Source: Stylophora pistillata
Lineage: Eukaryota
DNA: 64,000 bases
Reading direction: 5' to 3'
Assembly (NCBI RefSeq): GCF_002571385.2
Contig: NW_019217844.1
Location: forward strand, 190,407 to 254,406
A program made the translations under genes and the position numbers. Below are positions 38,440 to 64,000 of the stretch, in pieces (positions within the stretch are counted from its first letter, which is position 1; each line of letters starts with the position of its first letter). The notes below the pieces were generated by a model that ran no database searches, was not told the DNA's origin, and saw only the letters and a list, made by a program, of their open reading frames with translations.

Positions 38440-41124
38440 ATGAACTTTCTTTGTGGACATCTTTCCATACTCTTCTTCCAGGGTAACTGGTTGTTTAAAT
38501 CAAAATTTTTTGCGATTTCGGTAAGTTGCAGTGTCAGCAATATTATTAAGAAATGGATAATTGCAGGGAAAACAATACTGCAGGAAAGCGTACGATCGTT
38601 TTCTCAACGAACTCTTTTAAATCTCTCTTACGTAGAAAGAAGAAACACGTCGAACTATAATATGTGACCGAAAAGTTATGCTGAAACTCTGTATTCAGCT
38701 GTTATCCCGGACCGTAGCTAGTTAATAATTATTTCACCCTAAAAATTGATCGTGTGATTCGCAGGCTAGCGTGATATCAACAGCACCTCGCTTGCGTTCA
38801 TCAATGGAAGCCCACGATAAGCTACGCATCTGGCAACATTTCATCGTCGCGAAACATCTATATTTCATGTAACCTATAAATGTTTTGATCTAACACTTTT
38901 GATTTTAGCAAATTGGACTGTTCCTTTCGCAATTAACCGAACACATTTCTCCGCATAAAAACTCTTGAAAGTGAGATAGGTAGATCTCTTTCTTAAAAGG
39001 AAATTCCTCTACGATCACATTAAGAAGTTTCGAGTGTGGGTTCGATTTCTTGATTTGCCTTTTGCTGTTGATCTGGCTCAGCGAGGGCATGCATATCCAA
39101 CTTTGGCTTTTAGAAGCAAAGTCATACTCTCTATCGACTATGGGTTGATTGATTGGTACAGAGAGGGTTATCTCTGCTTGGTTATTCTTCACATTTTCTT
39201 GATTTTTGTCTTTTCTTTCCACAGTTATTTCTTGCACTTTCAACATTCAGTACTGTTAAAGGCAAAAATTGGCAGTGCCCAGATTGCAATAAAGAAGGAT
39301 ATATCGAAATCATTGATCCGAAAACTGGCAATTGTGAAACATGCTGGCCTTGTCCTGAATGTGGGGAGGGTGCAGGTTCATCTGTTCAATGCAAATCGAG
39401 TGTACCTAGGGGCACAGACATACACTGTGTTTCTTGCATTATGGGCATTAACTTCTCTAACAGCTCCAGTACTGAAAAGTGCCAACCTTGTGGTGTCTGT
39501 TCAGGAAAGCACGAGCATGTCACAGCTGAATGTTCCCCTTTGAGTGATGTGGAATGTGAATGTGAAAGTGGATTTTATAGAAACAAAACCACTCATGAAT
39601 GCCAGTCATGTGATTCCTGTTGCTTCACTGATGCAGACGATGATATCATCGAAAAATGTCAGGAAAACGTTGAAATCAAAGAAGATGAACAATCTGTGTT
39701 CAGCCCCTCTACAGCCATTGCAAAAACCACAACTTCATTCAAATCAATCAAGATCCATAAATCTGTAACTCCTTTTCTTCTGGGCTCCACTGGTATTCCA
39801 GTTCCTTCGAGGACCCAATTAATCCAATCTACACCAACAAGTGTTTCATTTCCAATTCAAAAGCATGATGTGGTACCTACAGAAAATGTGATCATTATGA
39901 ATGTACATACAACAGGACATGAACATGGTGAAAGTATGAAATGGATCAGAGGACTTACATGCACTATGGGTGTTTCTATTTTTGTCATACTGTGTTGTTG
40001 TTTACTCTACCTAGTGTTAAAAAGAGTAAGGAAAAACAGAGGAAACAGAAATGTATTACCAGCTGTATTTTATCGTGTACCTCAGCATGATGTGGAAAAC
40101 TATGGGTTGCAAAAGAGGATTGATGGGCACTGTACCCCTGGTTCTGATGAATCAAGAAGAAATTCAAATACAGTTGTTTTTCAAAAGGATCATGGAGTTG
40201 TAAAAGGGGATCAGCTTGAGAACACTGCCAGCAAAGACTCAGTTCAGACAGGTGAAATTAAGGAAAACTAAAGGGTCATTAGTCTAATTTACTGGGATTA
40301 AGGGTTACACAGCCAAAATAATGATAACTTTGGAGAAACACAACACGGTGCCATTTGAAGTGATTGTAACCTCTAGAATAACAATAGTTGCACTAAGTGT
40401 TTTCCTTAGCTACTCTGGTAATTATAACATAACACTTTTTACTTTTTTCTTCCATTGAAGGATAGATTCAATTATTTTTATTTCTGTCTGGCAAGAAATA
40501 TTTATATTTATAAAATTCCAGTCTCTAGCCTTCAAAAGGATTGCTCACAAGGTGAGATCCTCACTTACTGTGAATTTTTCCAAAGTGAACCCTTGGTCTA
40601 TATGCCTACAAGAAAGTTTAAGAATGAAATTTTGCCACCAATGTCAGCGACATGTTTTATTATTCCTCATCGAAAATATGACACTTATTTTGCCTTTTTT
40701 TGATTCTTACATAGCATCTGATCTACTTGTTGTTGATATGCAAGGGGGAAACCATGGAGCAGGCTGTAACTCAACTCCACTTCCTCAACCTGCAAAAGAC
40801 AACTTTGGCTATTCAACCTGCATAACAGATGTACCTCAACCTATCATCTGTAAAATGTGCAGGCTACTTGACATTGAAAGAGTTGCTGATGAGAACGATT
40901 ATAGAATGCTTGGATATGAACTTGGCCTTACACCATCAGAGATCACTTCCATCAAACAAAAAAGTAAAGAGCCATCTTTTGTGCTTTTGATGGAAAAGTT
41001 TGCAACCAAGCCACACTCTGGAACACTCAATCATCTCAAATCCATATTAGTAAAACTTGAAAGATATGATGTGATTCAGGTTATAGATAAATGGGTACAA
41101 AATCAACCATTGCAGACAAGTTAG
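38440..41124 (+). CDS. TNF receptor superfamily member with death domain (gene 1); exons 38440-38520, 39225-40251, optional 40522-40551, 40715-41124; ~505 aa
   Basis: Signal peptide, TNFR cysteine-rich repeats (CWPCPEC..C..C; CQPCGVC..C..CEC..GFY..C..C..CC), S/T/P stalk, TM GVSIFVILCCCLLYLVL plus KRVRK, death domain (DYRMLGYELGL...GTLNHLKSILVKLERYDVI). Confidence 0.88.
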
Positions 41125-41233: not shown

Positions 41234-41845
41234 CTGGCAGCAAGCAAGTTACCAACACAAACTTTGTTTTTTTGACAGTGAAGCTGACGTACATGCCATT
41301 GTCATGGCGACATGAATAAATATAAACAGGCCTTTAAAATCGGTTTTGTTCATTTGTAGAAAATCTAGTCATTAGTTTTTCTTTATGATTTGCATGCAAT
41401 GAGCTTGTAACAATACTCACAAGTTCAAACCATTTTGCTAACAATTTCACAGAGAGGTCTTTAATTGTCCCTTGTTGAAGGTTCATTTGATTATTTAGAA
41501 TTTCCTTAGTTAAAAATCAATTTTTTTCAATACTCCAGTTACTTATTTCCTAAAGTATTTTCGTGCCGAATTTCGTGAAATTCTAATGAGTGGTTCTTGA
41601 AAAATAGACATATTTCCAAGAAAGCAATTTTCCATTCAATTGCAATTTTTTTACCTACTACGCATGCGCTTTATTTAACTGGGTTCTCTTGGTAACGGTG
41701 AAAAAGCTGAGGGTTCTTTGCACCATTAACTTTTCTAACACGTCTTTGTAATAAAAGATTAAAGCCCTCAATAGAAAAAAATAGCACAGATAGTGCGGAT
41801 ATGTGTCGAGTAAACAAAACGACCACTCTGTTGACAGCATGTTTG
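41234..41845 (+). repeat. Non-coding block duplicated downstream of TNFR gene 2 (51366-51744 plus 53161-53445)
   Basis: Colinear high-identity alignment by eye: GCAGCAAGCAAGTTA..ACACAAACTTTG...TGTAGAAAATCTAGTCATTAG...CTACGCATGCGCT...GCATGTTTGTTT. Confidence 0.85.
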
Positions 41846-45060: not shown

Positions 45061-45309
45061 TACGCACAACCGCACGTACTTATATTTACATGGTTATAGT
45101 AAAGGAGGTTTTTCTTTCACAAAGGAATAGCCTTTAATTGATCCCCAATTGTGCTACAAAATACAATCTTCTAAGGTTTGTATGAACTAAATTCGATTAA
45201 CGTTGTAAAAAAAAATCATGTCTTTGTTCGTTTTTTTGCCACTACGACCAAAGTCGACATAAACTGGACAGTTTTCATTTTTTCTGCATGTGTCATCCCA
45301 GACGTAGCG

Positions 45310-48300
45310 ATGAACTTGCTTGGTGGACTTCTCTCCTTTCGTTTCATCAAGGATGACTCGGAGTATAAATCAGGATTTGCAGCAATTATGGTAAGTGATT
45401 AAGTAACGTAAAGACTTGCATATTTTCTACGAAATAGAACTTCTATGGAAAAACACAGAGGCACGTGCTTGTGTAGGTAAAAACAGGGTAATCACTATGA
45501 AATTTGACCGCGAACGCAAACATTCTATGTTGCTGTGTTCAAGTGAGTTTAGACTGAGGCTGTTTAGTTCAATTTCAGTTCATATACTTTGTCAAGGGCA
45601 AAGTGATTAAAAAATCCGACTACGCGAAGGAAAAACCGAAAAGCGAGGTAATTTTTTTAAAAAGGTTTTTAGATTAAGAATGCGAACGTTTCCAAAGTTC
45701 CACACTAGTTCGTGTATTGCGCAACGTAGATGGACATATTTGCATATTTACCCATAGCAAGCTTGCGCCACCTTAAAAAAAATTAGAATCTTTCTGCTCT
45801 CAGCCATGTTTATATCTAGTAAATACGTACTATTCAAGCAAAGTGTGCTTTTTTGCACGCACTGATTGGTTAATGCTGTACGATCAGCCTCGGAAATGTT
45901 TATTCAAATCGATTGAATTTCGGGCTTCGTCCGCACAGCCTCGCTTTCGTTTTAAAAATGATGGAGGCTCATAAAATGTTTTAAATTTCTTACTGAGACA
46001 TTTTTAAGCATCATTTTTCTTTTGGTAAAGACCAAAGCCTGTAATTTTGGAGATCTTCACTGTTAAGTTGGATTTTCAAGGTGATCTGATGTGTGAATTT
46101 TGTGGAACTAAAATTGAAAGTTTCGTACAAATAATTTACCAATGTTTGTTTCATTTTGCATTGTTCCCTTTCATTTTTCTCTGTTTTTCTCATTTTTCTA
46201 TATTGTTCTATATTTCTTAGGTGTTGCTTGCAGTTTCTTCATTCACCGGAGTTAGAGGCAAACATGGCCAGTGCCCAGACTGCACGGGGGGACAATATAT
46301 CAAAGTCATTGATCCAGCAACTGGCAAGTGTGAATCATGCTGGCCTTGTACTGTGTGTCAGGAGGGCACAGGCTCTTCAGTACGATGCGGATCAGTTGTA
46401 CCTAGAGGCATAGATATACACTGTGTTCCTTGTGTTAAAGGCATAAACTTTTCTAGCAGCTCCAGTACTGAACAGTGCCAGCCTTGTGGGGTTTGTTCAC
46501 GGAAGCATGAGCGTGTCTCGGCTGAATGTACCCTATTCAGTAATTTGAAATGTAAATGTGAGACTGGATTTTATCGCAACAAAACCACTACTGAATGTCA
46601 AACTTGTGATACCTGTTGCTCCAGTGATGAAGACAATGATATTGTTGAAAAATGTCAAAAAGATGCAGAAAACAAAGAAGATGAACAGCTCCTAGTGTCC
46701 AGCTCCTTCACAGTCATTTCAACATCTTCATCTGCTGTAAAATCCTCTACATTCCATGTAGCTCCAACTCCTTCACTTTCAAGCTCAACCAAAATCATGC
46801 CAGTTCCATCAAAACCCAAGCTGATCCATCCGACTACAGAAAGTGTTTTATCAGTCTATGAAAGGCATAGTGTGCCATCTGCTGAACTTAAGATTGATGT
46901 GAACCTTAAACATGTTGAAATTATGAAGTGGATCAAAGGACTGACATGCTCTGTGGGTGTTTTAGCTCTCATTTGTGTATCAGATTACTTTCTGAACCCA
47001 AAGCTGAAAAAGTTCAGGGAAAGGGGACAGATTAATCATCCAAGTCAGCAATCTTATAGATTTTCTACCCTTAACCAGCATGACCAAGAAAATCCTATAT
47101 TACTTAAAGGAGCAGGTACTTCATCCAGAAGGTCTGACACTGATGGGCCAATTAGAAGTACAGATGCAATCAATTGTACAGAGGATAATGAGGACGATGA
47201 AGTCATGATGATATGTAACCAGTATGTGCAGAAAACTGAGATGGAAAATTTCCAGAGAGGAATTCCAATATCAACAGGTGGCAAACCTAGAAGTTCCATC
47301 CCTGAAGGTAACAAAAGTAAAGCAAAATTGTAGTCTTAAGATATCATCTAACTAGGCTGTACAATATACAGTACATTATGAAGTCTGTACATACATTAAT
47401 AGGTGCTTACCTGCATCTCATTTTTCCCAGTTTTAGGAGAACTGAATCACTAGAAGTGTTCTCCTCTAGGGGTGGATTTTAGTCCATTGCAGGTCACCAG
47501 TTCTTCTCCCCCCAGCTTTTCATCAAGTTCCACAATTTCCTCTTTGTCATTTATACATATTTGTAGAGAGGACATAGTTAGAGCTGTGTGTCTTGCCCAT
47601 GGAACACAACAATACAACTAGACCAGGGCTGAAATATGGACCTTTCAATGGAAAGCTCGATTTGCAAACCATGAGGCTATTGAACATTTCCTATCAATAC
47701 ACTGTGATACTATCGGAAAGCCAAAATCTGAGAAATATGGCTGTCACATTAGTCAAATATAAAATGCCTTTTGTAAGTTTATCAGGTCTTAGTCATGTCA
47801 ACCACACATTAGCATTAATCACATTTTATTAGTAAAAGCACTGTACTCTGTAAAGAGTATATTGGCTATAGCTACTGCTAAATACAAATCTGACTTGACA
47901 AGACTTCAATTTCTACATTTTGTACATCCAATGTTTAAAGGCAGTTATTTGCATTTGTGGTGAAGAATTTACTATACCTGCGGAGTGAAAAGTGGTGTCT
48001 TGGCCCTCTAATAATTACTTTTAAAAAAGTTGTTTAATCTTGCCGAAACGTTACATGACTCTGATTTATTCCATTTGAAGCCTTGAAATAAATTATTGCA
48101 GTGATGTTGGCCAATTTTTTTTCAGGTTTATTTCCTAATTTGATAGATATTTCTCTCAGAGAGACTCATTGCTGACACTATTGAAATACATCAAACAATG
48201 CATGTTTAACACAGGTTAAAACAGATGTAGCTAATGGGATGTCCTTTACATCAAATTAACTTTTGCAATACTTAATGTTCCTATGATTATTATATATTAA

Positions 48301-49909
48301 TAGTTCCAGCACCAACATTTGAGAAAACTGATGTGCATAAATGTCCTGATCAGGATTATTTAAAACAAGGCACAGGGTCAAGTATGTGATTTGTTTTGTT
48401 TTTTTTTTTTGTGAAAGATATGCTGTAATATGCTAATTAACCCATTTTTCTTTCTTACAACAATTTCAGTTTCAGTCATTATGACAGTTGATTTATTGAC
48501 CTATTTCCTATAGATCTTTTCCCAGCTGTTTCAAAGTCAGTGCAAAACCATATGGAGGGCATCCCACCAACTTCTCCACATTCTGTTGATACTGGATTGC
48601 AACAACTGAGTAAGAAACAGATGTTGAGATTCTTAATTTTCATTAAGTAGAGTTAAATAGCCACAAAAACTATTTTTAATTAGTGACCACGGAGTGGATG
48701 AACACTACACAATAATGATTCTAGTGTGTTACATGATAGCCCATTTGCGAATTACCCTTGACCTCATTTTCAAAACGAGTCCGTGCTAATCCTTTCATAT
48801 GATAATAAGTTTCCATTCACGTGCAAATTAAACTCATTTTCACAAGAATGGTTGAGCATGAGGACTCATTTTGAAAATGAGGCCAAGGGTAATTTGCAAA
48901 TGGGTTATTGTGTTAAAAAGAAACTAATCAGACATGAGGGGGGCTAAAATCAATTTTGATTTCAATTGTGTATCCTACTGTCCTGTTTGAGTGGTCAATT
49001 AAGCATTGAACATTCCTAAGACATTTTTGCCAGCATTTGCTTTTTCACCAGATGACTGGAATAATGATTAATCTTTCATTTCTCTTTTTTTTCTACCACT
49101 AACAGGCAGATCTGAGGGAAATGACAACAATCATGATTTGATAATTTTTTCTGGTACTCCATCTTTCCCTGAAGAGACAACCTGCGATTCCTCTTTGCAT
49201 TTGGAACATAACACGCCATTTGTGAATTGCATAGTGCATATGCATCATCCTACAAGTAAGAAATAGTTTTGGCCAAGTATTTATAATAATTCTTTAGAAG
49301 CATCTTTTCTAAGCTCATGATCAGTGACAAAATTTACAAAGCTTTGGTAAAAGAACAATGAAGTAACAACATGACTGAATGGACAAACTCAGGTCTAGTA
49401 AATGTAATTATTTATAGATGAAGGAACCACTGAGCTAAAATCTATCTTCCATTTGTACAGTTTACCAGGCATGTACCAGTTCATTTTCTCCCCAATCATG
49501 GCCTCCCTCCCTTGCAGAAATTGTAAAGAATAATTCCTTATCTCCTGGATTGGATCAGCCAGTGAGAGTAGCAGTCAGCTGGTCAGAATTATCTCAGAAT
49601 GAAAGATACAGCACCAGGATTTTGGAAATGCCATTTAAGCTTCTCTATGATATGTGCTTGTCCCTTGACATACCACGAACTGATGGCAAAGATATTAGAA
49701 TGCTAGCAGACAAGCTTGGAATTACAGGCCGCAACTTTGATCGTCTTAAACAAGCTGCCATTACAGATAATTCTAATAATCCCATTTCATATGTTCTCCT
49801 GAAAGAAAGTTTTGATGCAGTAAATGGTACTGTGGGGGATTTTGTTGACATAATGAATGAAATAGGAAGGAGGGACATAGTTGATGACATAAATGATTGG
49901 CCTGGCTGA
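45310..49909 (+). CDS. TNF receptor superfamily member with death domain (gene 2); exons 45310-45390, 46221-47307, 48304-48381, 48514-48609, 49106-49255, 49518-49909
   Basis: Exon 1 MNLLGGLLSF.. is homologous to gene 1; same CRD cysteine pattern; phase-compatible GT-AG exons; death domain DIRMLADKLGI...GTVGDFVDIMNEIGRRDIV. Confidence 0.86.
48736..48908. mobile_element. Hairpin MITE in a TNFR gene 2 intron
   Basis: ATAGCCCATTTGCGAATTACCCTTGACCTCATTTTCAAAACGAGTCC / GGACTCATTTTGAAAATGAGGCCAAGGGTAATTTGCAAATGGGTTAT. Confidence 0.75.
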
Positions 49910-51744
49910 TGACAACTTACTTAGTAGGGGCAGATAATTAGAACAGGGGTTTGGAGGAAGGGGGCGAGAAAATTAATTTTCATGTAAGTCATTTATTCCC
50001 CTTCCTGTTGTACAGGATTATAATTTGCATTTATCATGGAACTTAAGGTTAATTAATTAAGAAAATCAGTGTTTGGAGAAGTGTATGATGAGTAGGCCTA
50101 GATACAAAAATCCCCAAAAATTGTCTGAAAAATATTTTGTACATTCTCCAAAAAAATTCTATAAATCTCAATCTTATCTCTAAAAATCTCAATTTACCTC
50201 AGATGATTTGCATAAGAGGTGAGATTCCTTTGCCGAAATTGCATGGAGGCACTTTAAAAGATTCAAAATGATCAGGTAATTAGTAGAAAATTTAAGTGGT
50301 TCGTCTCCTTACAGATTAGTTTCTCAAATAAGCGATAACGACAAATAAAACAGTAGGCAGAGTAAGTTCTGTTAACCACGTTTATTTGATTTTATACCAT
50401 CAGCGGTATTTTTCTAGACATTAGTGCTAAATATCCTTAAATGTTCTACAAATCCTCAAATTGTCATAAACTTCCATTTGACTCTAAAAATCCTTAAAAA
50501 AATTCCTGATTTTTGTACTTAGCCCTGGTGATGAGAAAACAAGAGAAAAAAATTTGTGCTGATCCCAAAATTTCTCACCCTCACCCCTCTTGTCACTTTT
50601 CTAATTGCAGGTCTTCACGTTTTTCATTCCTGCTTGACCCGCTAGGAAATATTTCTTTAAACTTTTTTTTTCAAAGCTTCTAACCATGAAGTTTTATGTA
50701 GCCCAGTAAGAATCATTTTATTTTGGAAAAGTGTCTTTAACTTGAAATGCTGGCAATCTAAAATCCTTGCATGATTTATTTTATTTATTTATTTGAATAT
50801 ATATTTAAAATCTTGACTAGTTTTGACATTTAAATTCTCCCATCATAAGCCCAAACTCCAGTATCTCTTCGTAGCAGCTTCTGAAGTTGCAAAAACTAAT
50901 GAGTTAGTGCAAGTTTTCTTTTAGGTTTAGGTTTAGAAATAGGTTTATTTTAATCACTCTGCTTTACTTAAATAAAATATGGTGGGGTTTTTCTTTCAAA
51001 GTTATTACTTTCCAGGACAATTTACTTAAGGTGATTACTTAGACGAAAAAGCTATAGAGCAATTGTTTTTTCTTTCCTTAAATGTTCACTATCAATGTCT
51101 GTTTTGAAAACAAAATGAAAAAAGATAGGTCACTATGCTTGAATCATAGTACAGTGCGTCAAAAAAATACAGACTTAAAGGTTTCTTTAAAAAAAATAAG
51201 GAACAATTTTTTTTCAACTTTCCTTAAAATGTTTACGGTCAATGTCTGTTTCGAAAATTAAAATAAAAAGGATAGGTCACCGTGCTTGTATCATAGCTCC
51301 CTCTCCCCACCGCACATTCCGCTCGCCCCAATACCCTCTCCTCTCCCCCAGGGCTTGCTTCGCAGGCTAGCAGCAAGCAAGTTAACAACACAAACTTTGT
51401 TTTTTTGATAAAGAGCTGACGTATGTGCTGTTGCCATGGCGACATGAATACATATAAAGAGGCAATTAAAATCGGTTTTGTTTCTTTGTAGAAAATCTAG
51501 TCATTAGATTTTCTTTATAATTTGCTTGCAACGAGCTTGTAACGATACTCACAAGTTAACACCATTTTGCTAACAATTTAACAGAGAGATCTTTAATTAT
51601 CTCTTGTTGAAGGTTCACTCGATTTTCTAGAATTTTCTTTGTTTAAAATCAGTTTTTTTTTTTCAATACTCCAGTTGCTTATTTCCTAAAGTATTATCGT
51701 GCCAAATTTCGTGAAATTCTAATGAGTGGTTCTCAAGAAATAGG

Positions 51745-62200: not shown

Positions 62201-62972
62201 CAAAATGAAAATCTGTAATTTGCAAAATGAAAATTTGTAATTTGCAAAATGGTGTATGAAAATTAAACTGAGTTTGGAAATCTGTATTTTGAAAGGAGAG
62301 AATCCTTGTTTCAGCAAATGTTTTCACCAAGCTGTGGATTTGATGATCTGTTTGGCAGGCAAATAAAATTATAATAATGCTTGAAACTCAAGAATATCAG
62401 AGAGCTTGGGTCAGTTTCATTTTCCCACCAGGCATCATGCATATACACCATATACACCTTTGGCTGTAACATTTTCCGAGAATATGTCCAGTCAGTCATG
62501 TTACATATTCAAGTTATATTCATCAACTATTTACATTGATTACAACTTATTAAAGCGGCACACCTACGGCGCCAGGCAATTTTTTAGATTTGACTCAATG
62601 GTGCAATTTTTCTTTCACATAGCTGCCCCATTGATTCATTCACAAACATATTGGAGATTTTGCAAAGTACATCACAAAGATTTTTCATTTTGTACTTTCC
62701 CTAGCAGTTATAATTTGCTAGGTTGCATGTCAATCCATAATTGTGGTAAACTGACAGGCTCCTCCTTTCAGCCCCCCGAGTTTTTCCAAAGTACAGATTT
62801 TGTTTTTTCAAATTGTAAAATTTCATTCACAATTACAGTTTTAGTTACTCTTATTTACAAAATGATCAATTCCTCTTAGATCCTCTGCCAACTCCTTCAC
62901 AATTTGGACACAATGTGGAAGACATCCCACAGATTTCCCTGCAATCTGTTGATGTTAGATTGCAACAACCTA
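59232..62972 (+). CDS. TNF receptor superfamily member (gene 3), 3'-incomplete; exons 59232-59249, 60076-60829, 61352-61582, 61902-61982, 62880-62972
   Basis: Signal peptide MIMWGL|VAVVSYLLVYEGFGA; CRDs (CPTGHGSTVPC..CVPC; CKSCRNC..C..C..C.KGFY..C.KCS.CC); TM IVGIVVGLVFSFVVGVCVIIW plus CRRNR; phase-1 cytoplasmic exons; no stop codon or death domain found inside the window. Confidence 0.85.
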
Positions 62973-64000
62973 GTAAGCCAGAGATTGTATGATTGTGTTA
63001 AGGATGTATGATGAAAGAAGCATTGTTTGCAAAATTCAATTTTTATTTTTTGATTTGTGACTGTGTGATTTAAGAGGCTTTAAACTAAAAGAATTTAAGG
63101 CTACAAACGGGGATGAAATGAGTAAAAGTAGTTTAAAAATTTATAATCTAAATATACACTCAAAATGTTTCTTTTTGAGGGTGCATGATTCCTCAGAAAA
63201 AAAAGTTACCGTACAATTTGTTTTTATCTTTTGTTAAATTTTCTCTACCAATGTCTGTTTTGGAAAACACACTATAAAGACAGGTTACTATGCTCATTTT
63301 GGAGATACCATGGGCCAGTCTAACAAGCCAATTTGAGCCTGTACTAGTGCTAATTATTTCATCAGTGTAAGGTACATTTTTCCTTAGCTGGAAGCAATGG
63401 TTTGTAAATTGACAGTTAAAGAAAACTTTAACCATTTTAACTAAAGAGTTGTTGCTTTCAGTCAAGGTCATAATTTGCATCACGAGGTATCAACAGGCTT
63501 TGTGCATACTTTTAGCTGTATCATTTTTTCCCTTCAATGAATTTTTTTTAATTTCTCCATTTTTAAGGCGATAGTTTGAACACCAAATTATGCAATAACA
63601 AAATATAGTTCATGGTGCCTTGTTCATGCAAGAGCTAAAGACCAGCATACTTCCTTACCTGGTCCACTGAAAAACAATACTGTATTCTCAGAATGCATGT
63701 GCCCTTAATTGCCTGATTACGTTATTTTTATGTGCACTACAAGATGCACAGTGCAATACTGGGGAATCACTTTAATCAGTGAGCAGTTAAAATAAGAAAT
63801 AAAAAATGAAAATATTTGTGAACTCCCAACTAGTGGCTTTGTAGCCCAGTTGGAATAAGCACCCAAATCAGTCTCAGGGAGGAACAGGTTCATTTTGTTT
63901 TGGGGACTGGAAGTAACTCTTTTTTTTTCTTTAACACGAGACCAGGATTGAACTTACTTGCCTTTTTTTGATCTATTACTTGCCAACATGTAGTTAACAT

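Follow-up and report, generated by a model that had tools for sequence, protein, structure and literature searches.

A coral TNF receptor gene that probably unites exons of three neighbouring paralogues

The gene at 45310-49909 of the window (the whole stretch of 64,000 nucleotides analysed here, from Stylophora pistillata) is RefSeq LOC111324496, called gene 2 in this report. It is an intact, spliced and transcribed death-domain TNF receptor, and a single history for the whole gene is rejected by trees and site counts. Gene 2 very probably carries three ancestries (Table 1). It probably consists of gene-1-type exons 1-2, gene-3-type exons 3-4 and exons 5-6 of the gene 4/6 type, fused from copies of neighbouring genes through two intronic deletions; a ligand-binding ectodomain of gene-1 type would in this way be connected to a death domain of the gene 4/6 type. 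A sequence-only reading had described gene 2 as a chimera of the gene 1 ectodomain and the gene 3 signalling half; its chimeric nature is upheld by the trees and site counts, whereas the gene 3 contribution shrinks to two exons and the death domain turns out to be of gene-4/6 type. With a signalling end of the gene 4/6 lineage, linkers of gene 3 and an ectodomain of gene 1, three sources and two junctions are therefore involved.

Table 1. Features of genes 1, 2 and 3 in the window
Feature	Position	Strand	Remarks
Gene 1, 505 aa (P0008), relative of the putative 5' donor	38440..41124	+	coding exons 38440-38520, 39225-40251, 40715-41124
Gene 2 coding exon 1, leader resembling that of gene 1	45310..45390	+	57/81 nt shared with exon 1 of gene 1
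Gene 2 exon 2: cysteine-rich ectodomain, stalk, transmembrane helix, juxtamembrane tail; gene-1 type	46221..47307	+	
Junction 1 interval within intron 2, putative change from gene-1-type to gene-3-type ancestry	47308..48155	+	exact point not placed
Gene-3-homologous block (to 61763-62046), includes gene 2 exon 3	48156..48440	+	
Gene 2 exon 3	48304-48381	+	78 nt, phase 1-1, alternatively skipped
Gene-3-homologous block (to 62821-62994), includes gene 2 exon 4	48451..48631	+	
Gene 2 exon 4	48514-48609	+	96 nt, phase 1-1
Junction 2 interval within intron 4, putative change from gene-3-type to gene-4/6-type ancestry	48632..49105	+	
Gene 2 exon 5, most similar to exon 3 in genes 4 and 6	49106..49255	+	150 nt, phase 1-1
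Gene 2 last exon, encoding a gene-4/6-type death domain	49461..49909	+	
Gene 3 exons 1-5 (P0233), relative of the putative linker donor	59232..62972	+	59232-59249, 60076-60829, 61352-61582, 61902-61982, 62880-62972

GT-AG ends and positions were verified for all exons named in the sequence-only reading, and an acceptor at 49518 for the last exon was superseded once RNA placed its start at 49461. RNA joints from three runs connect exon 2 to either exon 3 or exon 4, and exon 4 through exon 5 to exon 6. Both linker exons (3 and 4) are present in 11/11 aligned Logan transcript proteins, and 10/11 continue into the death domain. Exons 3, 4 and 5 are 1-1 symmetric with lengths that are multiples of three, and the cytoplasmic introns across six genes of the array are in phase 1 in 16/16 cases. 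It is very improbable that an assembly or gene-model artefact has united neighbouring genes here. The assembly is fragmented and gapped, one public model (P0007) fuses genes 1 and 2, and none of the DNA contigs of run X1 spans both junctions; however, RNA joints from other samples span both, alleles that are 90-95% identical share the gene 2 layout, and the parts of gene 2 are ~30% diverged from their donors and hence are not misjoined copies. The RNA joints and the transcript proteins refute such an artefact.

The assignment of TNFR-type cysteine-rich domains to gene 2 is made on combined evidence, each test being weak by itself. The Pfam TNFR_c6 match (E 3e-4, 21.6 bits) lies below the 29.4 cut-off, and the ten best Foldseek rows for the ectodomain are TNFR ectodomains (DcR3, p75NTR, DR4, TNFR2, OPG), with a best E of 2e-3 and no row reaching 1e-3. 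A single transmembrane helix follows the ectodomain, its best 19-residue hydropathy (1.79) being the lowest among the six genes; the structure model has a long, confident helix at this segment, and the window's allele carries Asp in it as against Val or Ala in most transcripts. At the N terminus, where a cleavable signal peptide would be expected, the hydropathy peak is only 1.57. The cytoplasmic death domain is recognized by Pfam Death (23.6 bits, cut-off 22.6) and modelled as helical with pLDDT 90, and its best Foldseek rows are death domains with probability near 1, TM 0.5-0.8 and E above 0.05.

That exon 1 and the CRD exon are close to gene 1, and the gene 3 ectodomain more divergent, was correctly noted from the sequence. 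Exons 1-2 show 65-72% DNA identity to gene 1, positions 45154-45396 aligning with 38275-38526 at 65%, and the CRD region is 69% (aa) and 79% (nt) identical to gene 1 as compared to 42% and 53% for gene 3. For CRD1, silent-site divergence (pS) is 0.37 against gene 1 and 0.74-0.79 against genes 6/4. Genes 1 and 2 group with support 100/99 in the ectodomain tree, which was built without seven one-CRD proteins. The groups for tree tests were named after the first trees had been seen; in AU tests, a position of gene 2 outside the gene-1-type group is rejected for the whole of exon 2 (1.8e-4), while an alternative placement is not rejected for the CRDs alone (p-AU 0.058), nor is gene 2 with genes 4/6 for CRD1 (p-AU 0.095; tree without 15 gene-3-type or partial rows). 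The stalk, transmembrane segment and tail score z 36 to gene 1 and about 0 to genes 4/6, whose own corresponding segment aligns to one-CRD proteins of other corals. The homology search of the locus gave no match from 46962 to 48156, and the end of exon 2 is of gene-1 type by protein comparison. The nearest outgroups for exon 2 are P0003/P0004.

Beyond junction 1, gene 2 exons 3-4 resemble gene 3 exons 4-5 at 60-66% DNA identity, with about 150 nt of intron included. The likeness claimed earlier between gene 2 exon 4 and gene 3 exon 5, also at the DNA level, is well founded: 61/90 nt and 12/30 aa are identical, with the same codon in 10/12 shared residues, and the score of 192 stands against a control maximum of 82 over 4186 windows of a 224-kb region. 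A 21-base pattern from exon 4 matches exactly only the gene 2 and gene 3 exons in the genome, with one further match at 2 mismatches and 0 for the reversed control; this pattern search was used in place of searching the genome with the linker at the DNA and protein levels, which was too insensitive and returned only the query itself. The parallel drawn between gene 2 exon 3 and gene 3 exon 4 is weak for the exons alone (protein z 1.3; 25/4192 windows score equally high), yet it is recovered in the surrounding block (60%, E 1e-8), the intron portion of which by itself outscores 4158/4158 windows. Homology of both blocks extends past the exon ends, strongly upstream of exon 3 and weakly around exon 4, where 80/4176 windows score as high as the intron flanks. 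A z of 2 or more was obtained for only 2 of the 14 intron flank pairs targeted, while an out-of-register pair of introns gave z 4.8. Two further candidate similarities, one between gene 3 exon 4 and the matching P0176 stretch and one between exon 5 of gene 3 and exon 4 of gene 7, were positional and not significant. No TRAF-type motif was found in gene 2 exons 3-4. The two gene-3-type exons are likely passengers forming a putative flexible spacer, one of them optional.

Gene 1 is without such exons, as had been observed, and its 463-nt intron showed no trace of them. The earlier reading had offered an alternative in which the linker exons are ancestral and gene 1 lost them. In its full form, that the gene 2 layout is ancestral, with the linker exons lost in gene 1, genes 4 and 6 and others, and the gene 1 death domain diverged or swapped, this is largely refuted and, in our view, highly improbable. 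Such a history would agree with P0027 from Montipora, where a death domain of gene-2 type follows a multi-CRD ectodomain, and with gene 1 having lost exon pieces which relatives keep (the exon 2 end in P0238, the middle exon in L056/P0005). However, silent sites between genes 2 and 3 are saturated elsewhere (0.76 in the CRDs, 0.84 in the death domain), yet there is 68% DNA identity in the fast-changing linker exon plus about 150 nt of intron, and loss in gene 1 therefore does not explain the pattern. It is also countered by other corals, where gene-1-type death domains accompany gene-1-type ectodomains (P0005, L053, L056), and by the absence of the linker exons from P0027 and P0036; they are absent as well from P0005 and P0238. 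The linker B exon is present in the Pocillopora gene 3 orthologue (P0219, P0220, P0228).

Exons 5-6 of gene 2 match genes 4 and 6, which are one-CRD genes beyond the window. Its death domain shares 60% identity with those of genes 4/6, compared with 39% for gene 1 and 34% for gene 3, with pS of 0.46, 0.67 and 0.84, respectively. The death-domain tree joins gene 2 to genes 4/6 with support 98/92, and AU tests reject its grouping with gene 1 (2e-18) and with gene 3 (4e-7). Separate domain trees, proposed earlier with inclusion of the gene 3 death domain beyond the window (last exon just past its end, G000:C61 about 254577-255001), are discordant, pointing to gene 1 for the ectodomain and to genes 4/6 for the death domain. 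Exon 5 has a protein z of 5.5 to gene 6 and DNA z of 6.1 and 6.5 to exon 3 of genes 4/6, with a weaker DNA likeness (z 4.6) to a gene-1-type middle exon. A single crossover that joined the gene 1 ligand half to the whole gene 3 signalling half would account for both linker exons being gene-3-like, but with a death domain so unlike that of gene 3, with no counterpart of gene 3 exon 3 in the segment map of the gene 2 locus and none of gene 2 exon 5 in gene 3, it is the least credible explanation, refuted by the last exon of gene 3 and with hardly any chance of being correct. In other corals a one-CRD type (P0036/P0234) leads from exon 2 through an exon-5-like stretch to a gene-2-type death domain without the gene-3 linker. 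In P0027 a more distant multi-CRD ectodomain precedes such a death domain, and this pairing is thus also old in corals.

Along the gene 2 locus the segment map runs from gene 1 (65%, 72%) through gene 3 (60%, 66%) to genes 6/4 (68%, 67%). Informative sites matching gene 1 and gene 4 number 33/11 in CRD1 and 31/98 in the death domain (Fisher p 4e-9; p 2e-9 with gene 6 in place of gene 4). The donor-matching segments lie on the same strand and in the same order as the donor genes, which together with the uniform phase of the cytoplasmic introns makes duplication plus intronic deletions the likeliest route; given three ancestries, we lean towards such a colinear origin. A gene 1 copy would have stood upstream of a copied pair of genes 3 and 4; a first deletion would have taken out the death-domain exon of gene 1 together with exons 1-3 of gene 3, and a second the death-domain exon of gene 3 together with exons 1-2 of gene 4. 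Since every cytoplasmic intron is of phase 1, splicing would have stayed in frame across the junctions. This route would need at least two duplications and two deletions. A later copy of the gene 3 and gene 4 pair is present in the array, no intermediate haplotype was seen, and neither junction can be placed to the base. A palindromic high-copy repeat (48731-48913), visible as a depth spike, lies inside the junction 2 interval.

The same mosaic could have arisen differently, gene 2 being a duplicate of one gene that acquired the remaining parts in separate events of ectopic gene conversion or insertion, for instance a gene-4-type copy with exons 1-2 replaced from the adjacent gene 1 and a two-exon cassette copied from gene 3. 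We regard this as unlikely, though fragments do move in the array, as seen from a broken 3' gene 1 copy (82-85% nt) between genes 3 and 4, the present gene order differs from the product of one block duplication, and the silent divergence of the three parts overlaps, if imprecisely. Conversion requires flanking homology, and none is detectable between donors at either junction (age may have erased it); nor does it predict parts in donor order. The mosaic event is old and not a recent crossover. A common 3' flank of genes 1 and 2 (41234-41817 and 51367-53393), considered as a sign of recent duplication, proved to be a genome-wide repeat, for which scoring 40 of 365 candidates gave 43 matches. 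Protein searches and a metagenome scan yielded no Pocillopora gene 2; one protein search also missed genes 4 and 6, so the negative outcome does not prove absence.

As described in the available portions of PMC6786274, human FCGR2C is an immune receptor in a tandem cluster with two parents, which arose recently through unequal crossover of repeats that are >98% identical. Gene 2 resembles this and similar chimeric paralogues in that ancestry switches along the gene between members of a cluster, with first exons from one paralogue and last exons from another, and the ectodomain joined to a different signalling tail. It differs in having three parents, ~30% diverged, and two junctions rather than two parents and one, and in intronic junctions at which no homology is now detectable and parts that follow the order of the donors, which is the deletion type. 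The excerpted account of phase-symmetric exon shuffling in PMC3632108 also fits, as exons 3, 4 and 5 are of this kind and exon 3 is skippable, the gained 78 and 96 nt exons match the phase of the host introns, and homology starts and ends in introns; unlike in general shuffling, the donors are adjacent, nameable paralogues of the same family. In amphioxus, available passages of PMC2575513 describe transcribed domain-shuffled immune genes such as TNFR-caspase, for which signalling rewiring was proposed. Gene 2 is likewise an invertebrate, transcribed gene with a rearranged TNFR cytoplasmic part; however, the amphioxus genes are new domain combinations, whereas gene 2 keeps the ordinary CRD-TM-death-domain layout, and its swap is therefore invisible to domain annotation.

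Large coral TNF-receptor families have been linked to heat stress and apoptosis (PMC4979521, in the part available), and coral TNFRs are usually tallied per whole gene and assigned to classes from a single domain. Such expansions by tandem birth and death are treated as whole-gene copy number in the accessible portions of PMC4979521, PMC5730576, PMC10236652 and PMC12314368, which describe no ectodomain/death-domain swaps between paralogues; the word 'shuffling' has 0 occurrences in these four. Gene 2 is a clear example of a known process that, within those portions, was not found in print for coral TNFRs. It indicates that the ectodomain and death domain of one receptor may differ in history under an ordinary layout, and single-domain trees would therefore misassign such genes. 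Genes 1 and 2, with the same ectodomain type and different tails, and genes 2, 4 and 6, with the same tail type and different ectodomains, constitute a natural swap experiment. Old recombination in the cluster, the likely source of this patchwork, would couple a given type of ligand sensing to another internal signal; the odds of a changed signalling output of gene 2 are about even. It is a speculative and rather doubtful extension that the array could be a combinatorial kit of old parts, three ectodomain types and three death-domain types with uniform phase-1 introns between them, repeatedly re-paired by deletions, which would connect one ligand class to several outputs, the rewired receptors being kept by selection. 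In another coral, L054/L055 have a death-domain exon of gene-3 type behind an exon 2 of gene-1 type, a second and independent re-pairing, though frameshifted.

The mosaic nature of gene 2 (LOC111324496 of Stylophora pistillata in RefSeq, with two isoforms of 646 and 620 aa) is real, and better defined than in the sequence-only reading, which had joined a gene-1-like ectodomain to a gene-3-type signalling half. All exons were found where that reading placed them, and the gene-1-like ectodomain was borne out, genes 1 and 2 being sisters (support 100/99) in a tree of 37 ectodomains; the signalling half was not, the death domains of genes 2 and 3 being 34 % identical. The death domain of gene 2 is 60-61 % identical to those of genes 4 and 6 and 39 % to that of gene 1, and exon 5 and the beginning of exon 6 are also nearest to genes 4/6. 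When the gene 2 locus was compared by sensitive blastn with the region, which was extended to C61:150407-374000, beyond the window (G000:C61:190407-254406), a clean map of segments from three sources emerged (table). The ranking of gene 1 against genes 4/6 by silent-site divergence reverses along the gene: in CRD1 gene 2 differs by 0.37 from gene 1 and by 0.74-0.79 from genes 6/4, whereas its death domain differs by 0.46 from genes 4/6, by 0.67 from gene 1 and by 0.84 from gene 3. Informative sites reverse likewise between the two ends (p 4e-9 and 2e-9). A MITE-like palindromic high-copy repeat, likely a later insertion, lies at 48731-48913, inside the second junction interval.

Features of the array, the gene 2 locus and its surroundings, in window numbering (continued past 64000)
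Feature	Position	Strand	Remark
Upstream housekeeping gene	1632-2903	-	presumably JmjC protein
Upstream housekeeping gene	3047-7293	+	presumably cap methyltransferase
Upstream housekeeping gene	13857-16043	-	presumably SNM1/Apollo-type nuclease
Gene 1	38440-41124	+	LOC111324499
Gene 2	45310-49909	+	
Gene 3	59232-64595	+	LOC111324498
Broken 3' copy of gene 1	67477-69214 (G000:C61 257883-259620)	+	flanked by genes 3 and 4; identity 82-85%
Gene 4	73561-75810	+	one CRD; counted from exon 2
Broken gene-3-like piece	85871-86278	+	
Gene 6	89811-93765	+	one CRD
Gene 7	103450-107931	+	gene-3 type
Gene 2 segments matching gene 1	45154-45396, 46184-46962		sensitive blastn
Gene 2 segments matching gene 3	48156-48440, 48451-48631		sensitive blastn
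Gene 2 segment matching genes 6 and 4	49452-49918		sensitive blastn
Gene 2 joint	47307>48304		reads X21 3, X24 4; X9 one contig
Gene 2 joint	47307>48514		reads X21 1, X24 3; X9 one contig
Gene 2 joint	48609>49106		reads X21 4, X24 3; X9 one contig
Gene 2 joint	49255>49461		reads X21 6, X24 12; X9 one contig

As the proposal of a chimera implied, trees of the separate domains disagree, the ectodomain of gene 2 falling with gene 1 and its death domain with genes 4/6. The 36 death domains form three old types, gene 2 joining genes 4/6 (98/92), gene 1 representing the second and genes 3/7 the third. AU tests, for which groups were picked after the first trees had been inspected, rejected a pairing of gene 2 with gene 3 in both domains, and for the death domain also its pairing with gene 1. 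Tests on the CRDs only were not significant for two closer alternatives (0.058 and 0.095); for whole exon 2 (16 rows, 335 columns), placing gene 2 outside the gene-1-type group was rejected (1.8e-4). Only 5 matches to the death domain of gene 2 turned up in the genome, every one inside the array. CRD-like matches numbered 51 genome-wide in the first search, and more clusters of TNFR-like CRD exons occur on contigs C334, C1248, C293, C301, C274, C632 and C207.

The match of gene 2 exon 4 to gene 3 exon 5 (linker B) that had been noticed at the DNA level was confirmed: 61 of 90 nt are common, but only 12 of 30 residues. Third codon positions (22/30) are as alike as first (19) and second (20), which argues for common descent rather than convergence at the protein level. 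None of the 4186 control windows comes near the score of the pair, and a pattern taken from linker B has exact matches in these two exons only. The suggested parallel between gene 2 exon 3 and gene 3 exon 4 (linker A) is weak in protein but stands in the surrounding DNA block (E 1e-8), the intron part of which, by itself, outscores all 4158 control windows. Four patterns that we take to be TRAF-type found no such motif in exons 3-4 and, as one of these exons is also optional, the gained exons are read as spacer.

Joints 1>2 and 3>4 of gene 2 lie outside the RNA-run listing but are spanned by transcript proteins. These Logan proteins are 90-95% identical to the RefSeq gene 2 protein; both linker exons are present in all 11 aligned, and 10 of the 11 extend to the death domain. 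The three downstream joints of gene 3 were seen in all four RNA runs, and none of the joints listed for them skips its exon 4. In the transmembrane helix of gene 2 an Asp codon (46983-46985) is replaced by Val or Ala in most transcripts.

Every donor layout is old. In other corals, gene-1-type ectodomain and death domain occur together in protein P0005 and sequences L053 and L056, and proteins P0052 and P0238 give evidence of gene-1-type tails. One-CRD receptors form a separate tree group (93/86); in alignments their stalk and tail match genes 4/6 but do not match gene 2. In Pocillopora, all three full-length gene 3 orthologues examined contain linker B and lack linker A, and protein P0036/P0234 has exon 2 followed, without linker, by a gene-2-type death domain. 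Since the donor layouts are old in other corals, gene 2 would on sequence comparison be the recipient. Gene 2 shares 11 linker B residues with Pocillopora gene 3, and the Stylophora and Pocillopora gene 3 share 17; together with the 13 shared by gene 2 and gene 3 within Stylophora in this comparison, these 30 residues suggest that the linker transfer may predate the split of the two genera. Against a simple story of gene 2 origin counts Montipora protein P0027, in which a more distant multi-CRD ectodomain is joined to a gene-2-type death domain.

Each of the 16 cytoplasmic introns in the array's six intact genes is in phase 1, so that any intronic fusion is in frame, and fusions inside these introns would have kept the reading frame of gene 2. 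It is possible that the parts were acquired by separate conversions. In TNFRs the ectodomain binds the ligand and the death domain sends the signal. The CRDs of genes 2 and 1 are 69% identical, and the gene 2 protein passes structural tests for a death-domain TNFR; in the predicted receptor, binding would fall to the gene-1-type ectodomain and signalling to the gene-4/6-type death domain.

Metagenome contigs L054 (2146-4700) and L055 from another coral, with 5 differences in 4636 nt, carry a frameshifted gene-1-type exon 2 and, ~1 kb on, a gene-3-type death-domain exon. This death domain groups with protein P0178 (99/96), and the contigs likely represent a second, independent re-pairing of ectodomain and death domain.

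FCGR2C (PMC6786274) and symmetric-exon shuffling (PMC3632108) involve similar processes, from which gene 2 differs in having three parents. No report of such TNFR chimerism in a coral or invertebrate was found in searches of openly accessible papers, nor in passages of PMC4979521, PMC5730576, PMC12314368, PMC2575513, PMC10236652 and bioRxiv 10.1101/2024.07.27.603686. In the public gene model P0007 (PFX29733), genes 1 and 2 are run together as a single protein of 1111 aa, and the 'in-frame paralogs' of coral TNFRs described in that preprint may reflect a similar artefact.

Elsewhere in the array, genes 4 and 6 (G000:C61 263967-284171) are death-domain receptors with a single CRD each, a type that is old, judging from relatives in other corals. 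Within intron 2 of gene 6 lie an assembly gap and, over 563 nt, a repeat of the region upstream of gene 6. Exon 2 of gene 1 ends (40251) ~15 codons earlier than in its relatives, and the middle exon of L056/P0005 is absent from gene 1. Logan protein P0010 is an apparent mix of gene 1 and its broken 3' copy, either by conversion or as a contig chimera. A 600-nt genome-wide repeat has copies at 41234-41817 and 51367-53393; an element of 1.4 kb that has similar inverted ends interrupts the second copy. Another element with inverted ends, and a tandem repeat surrounding an assembly gap, lie at 54661-57165, with a fragment near 55000-55570 that we take to be alpha-kinase-like.
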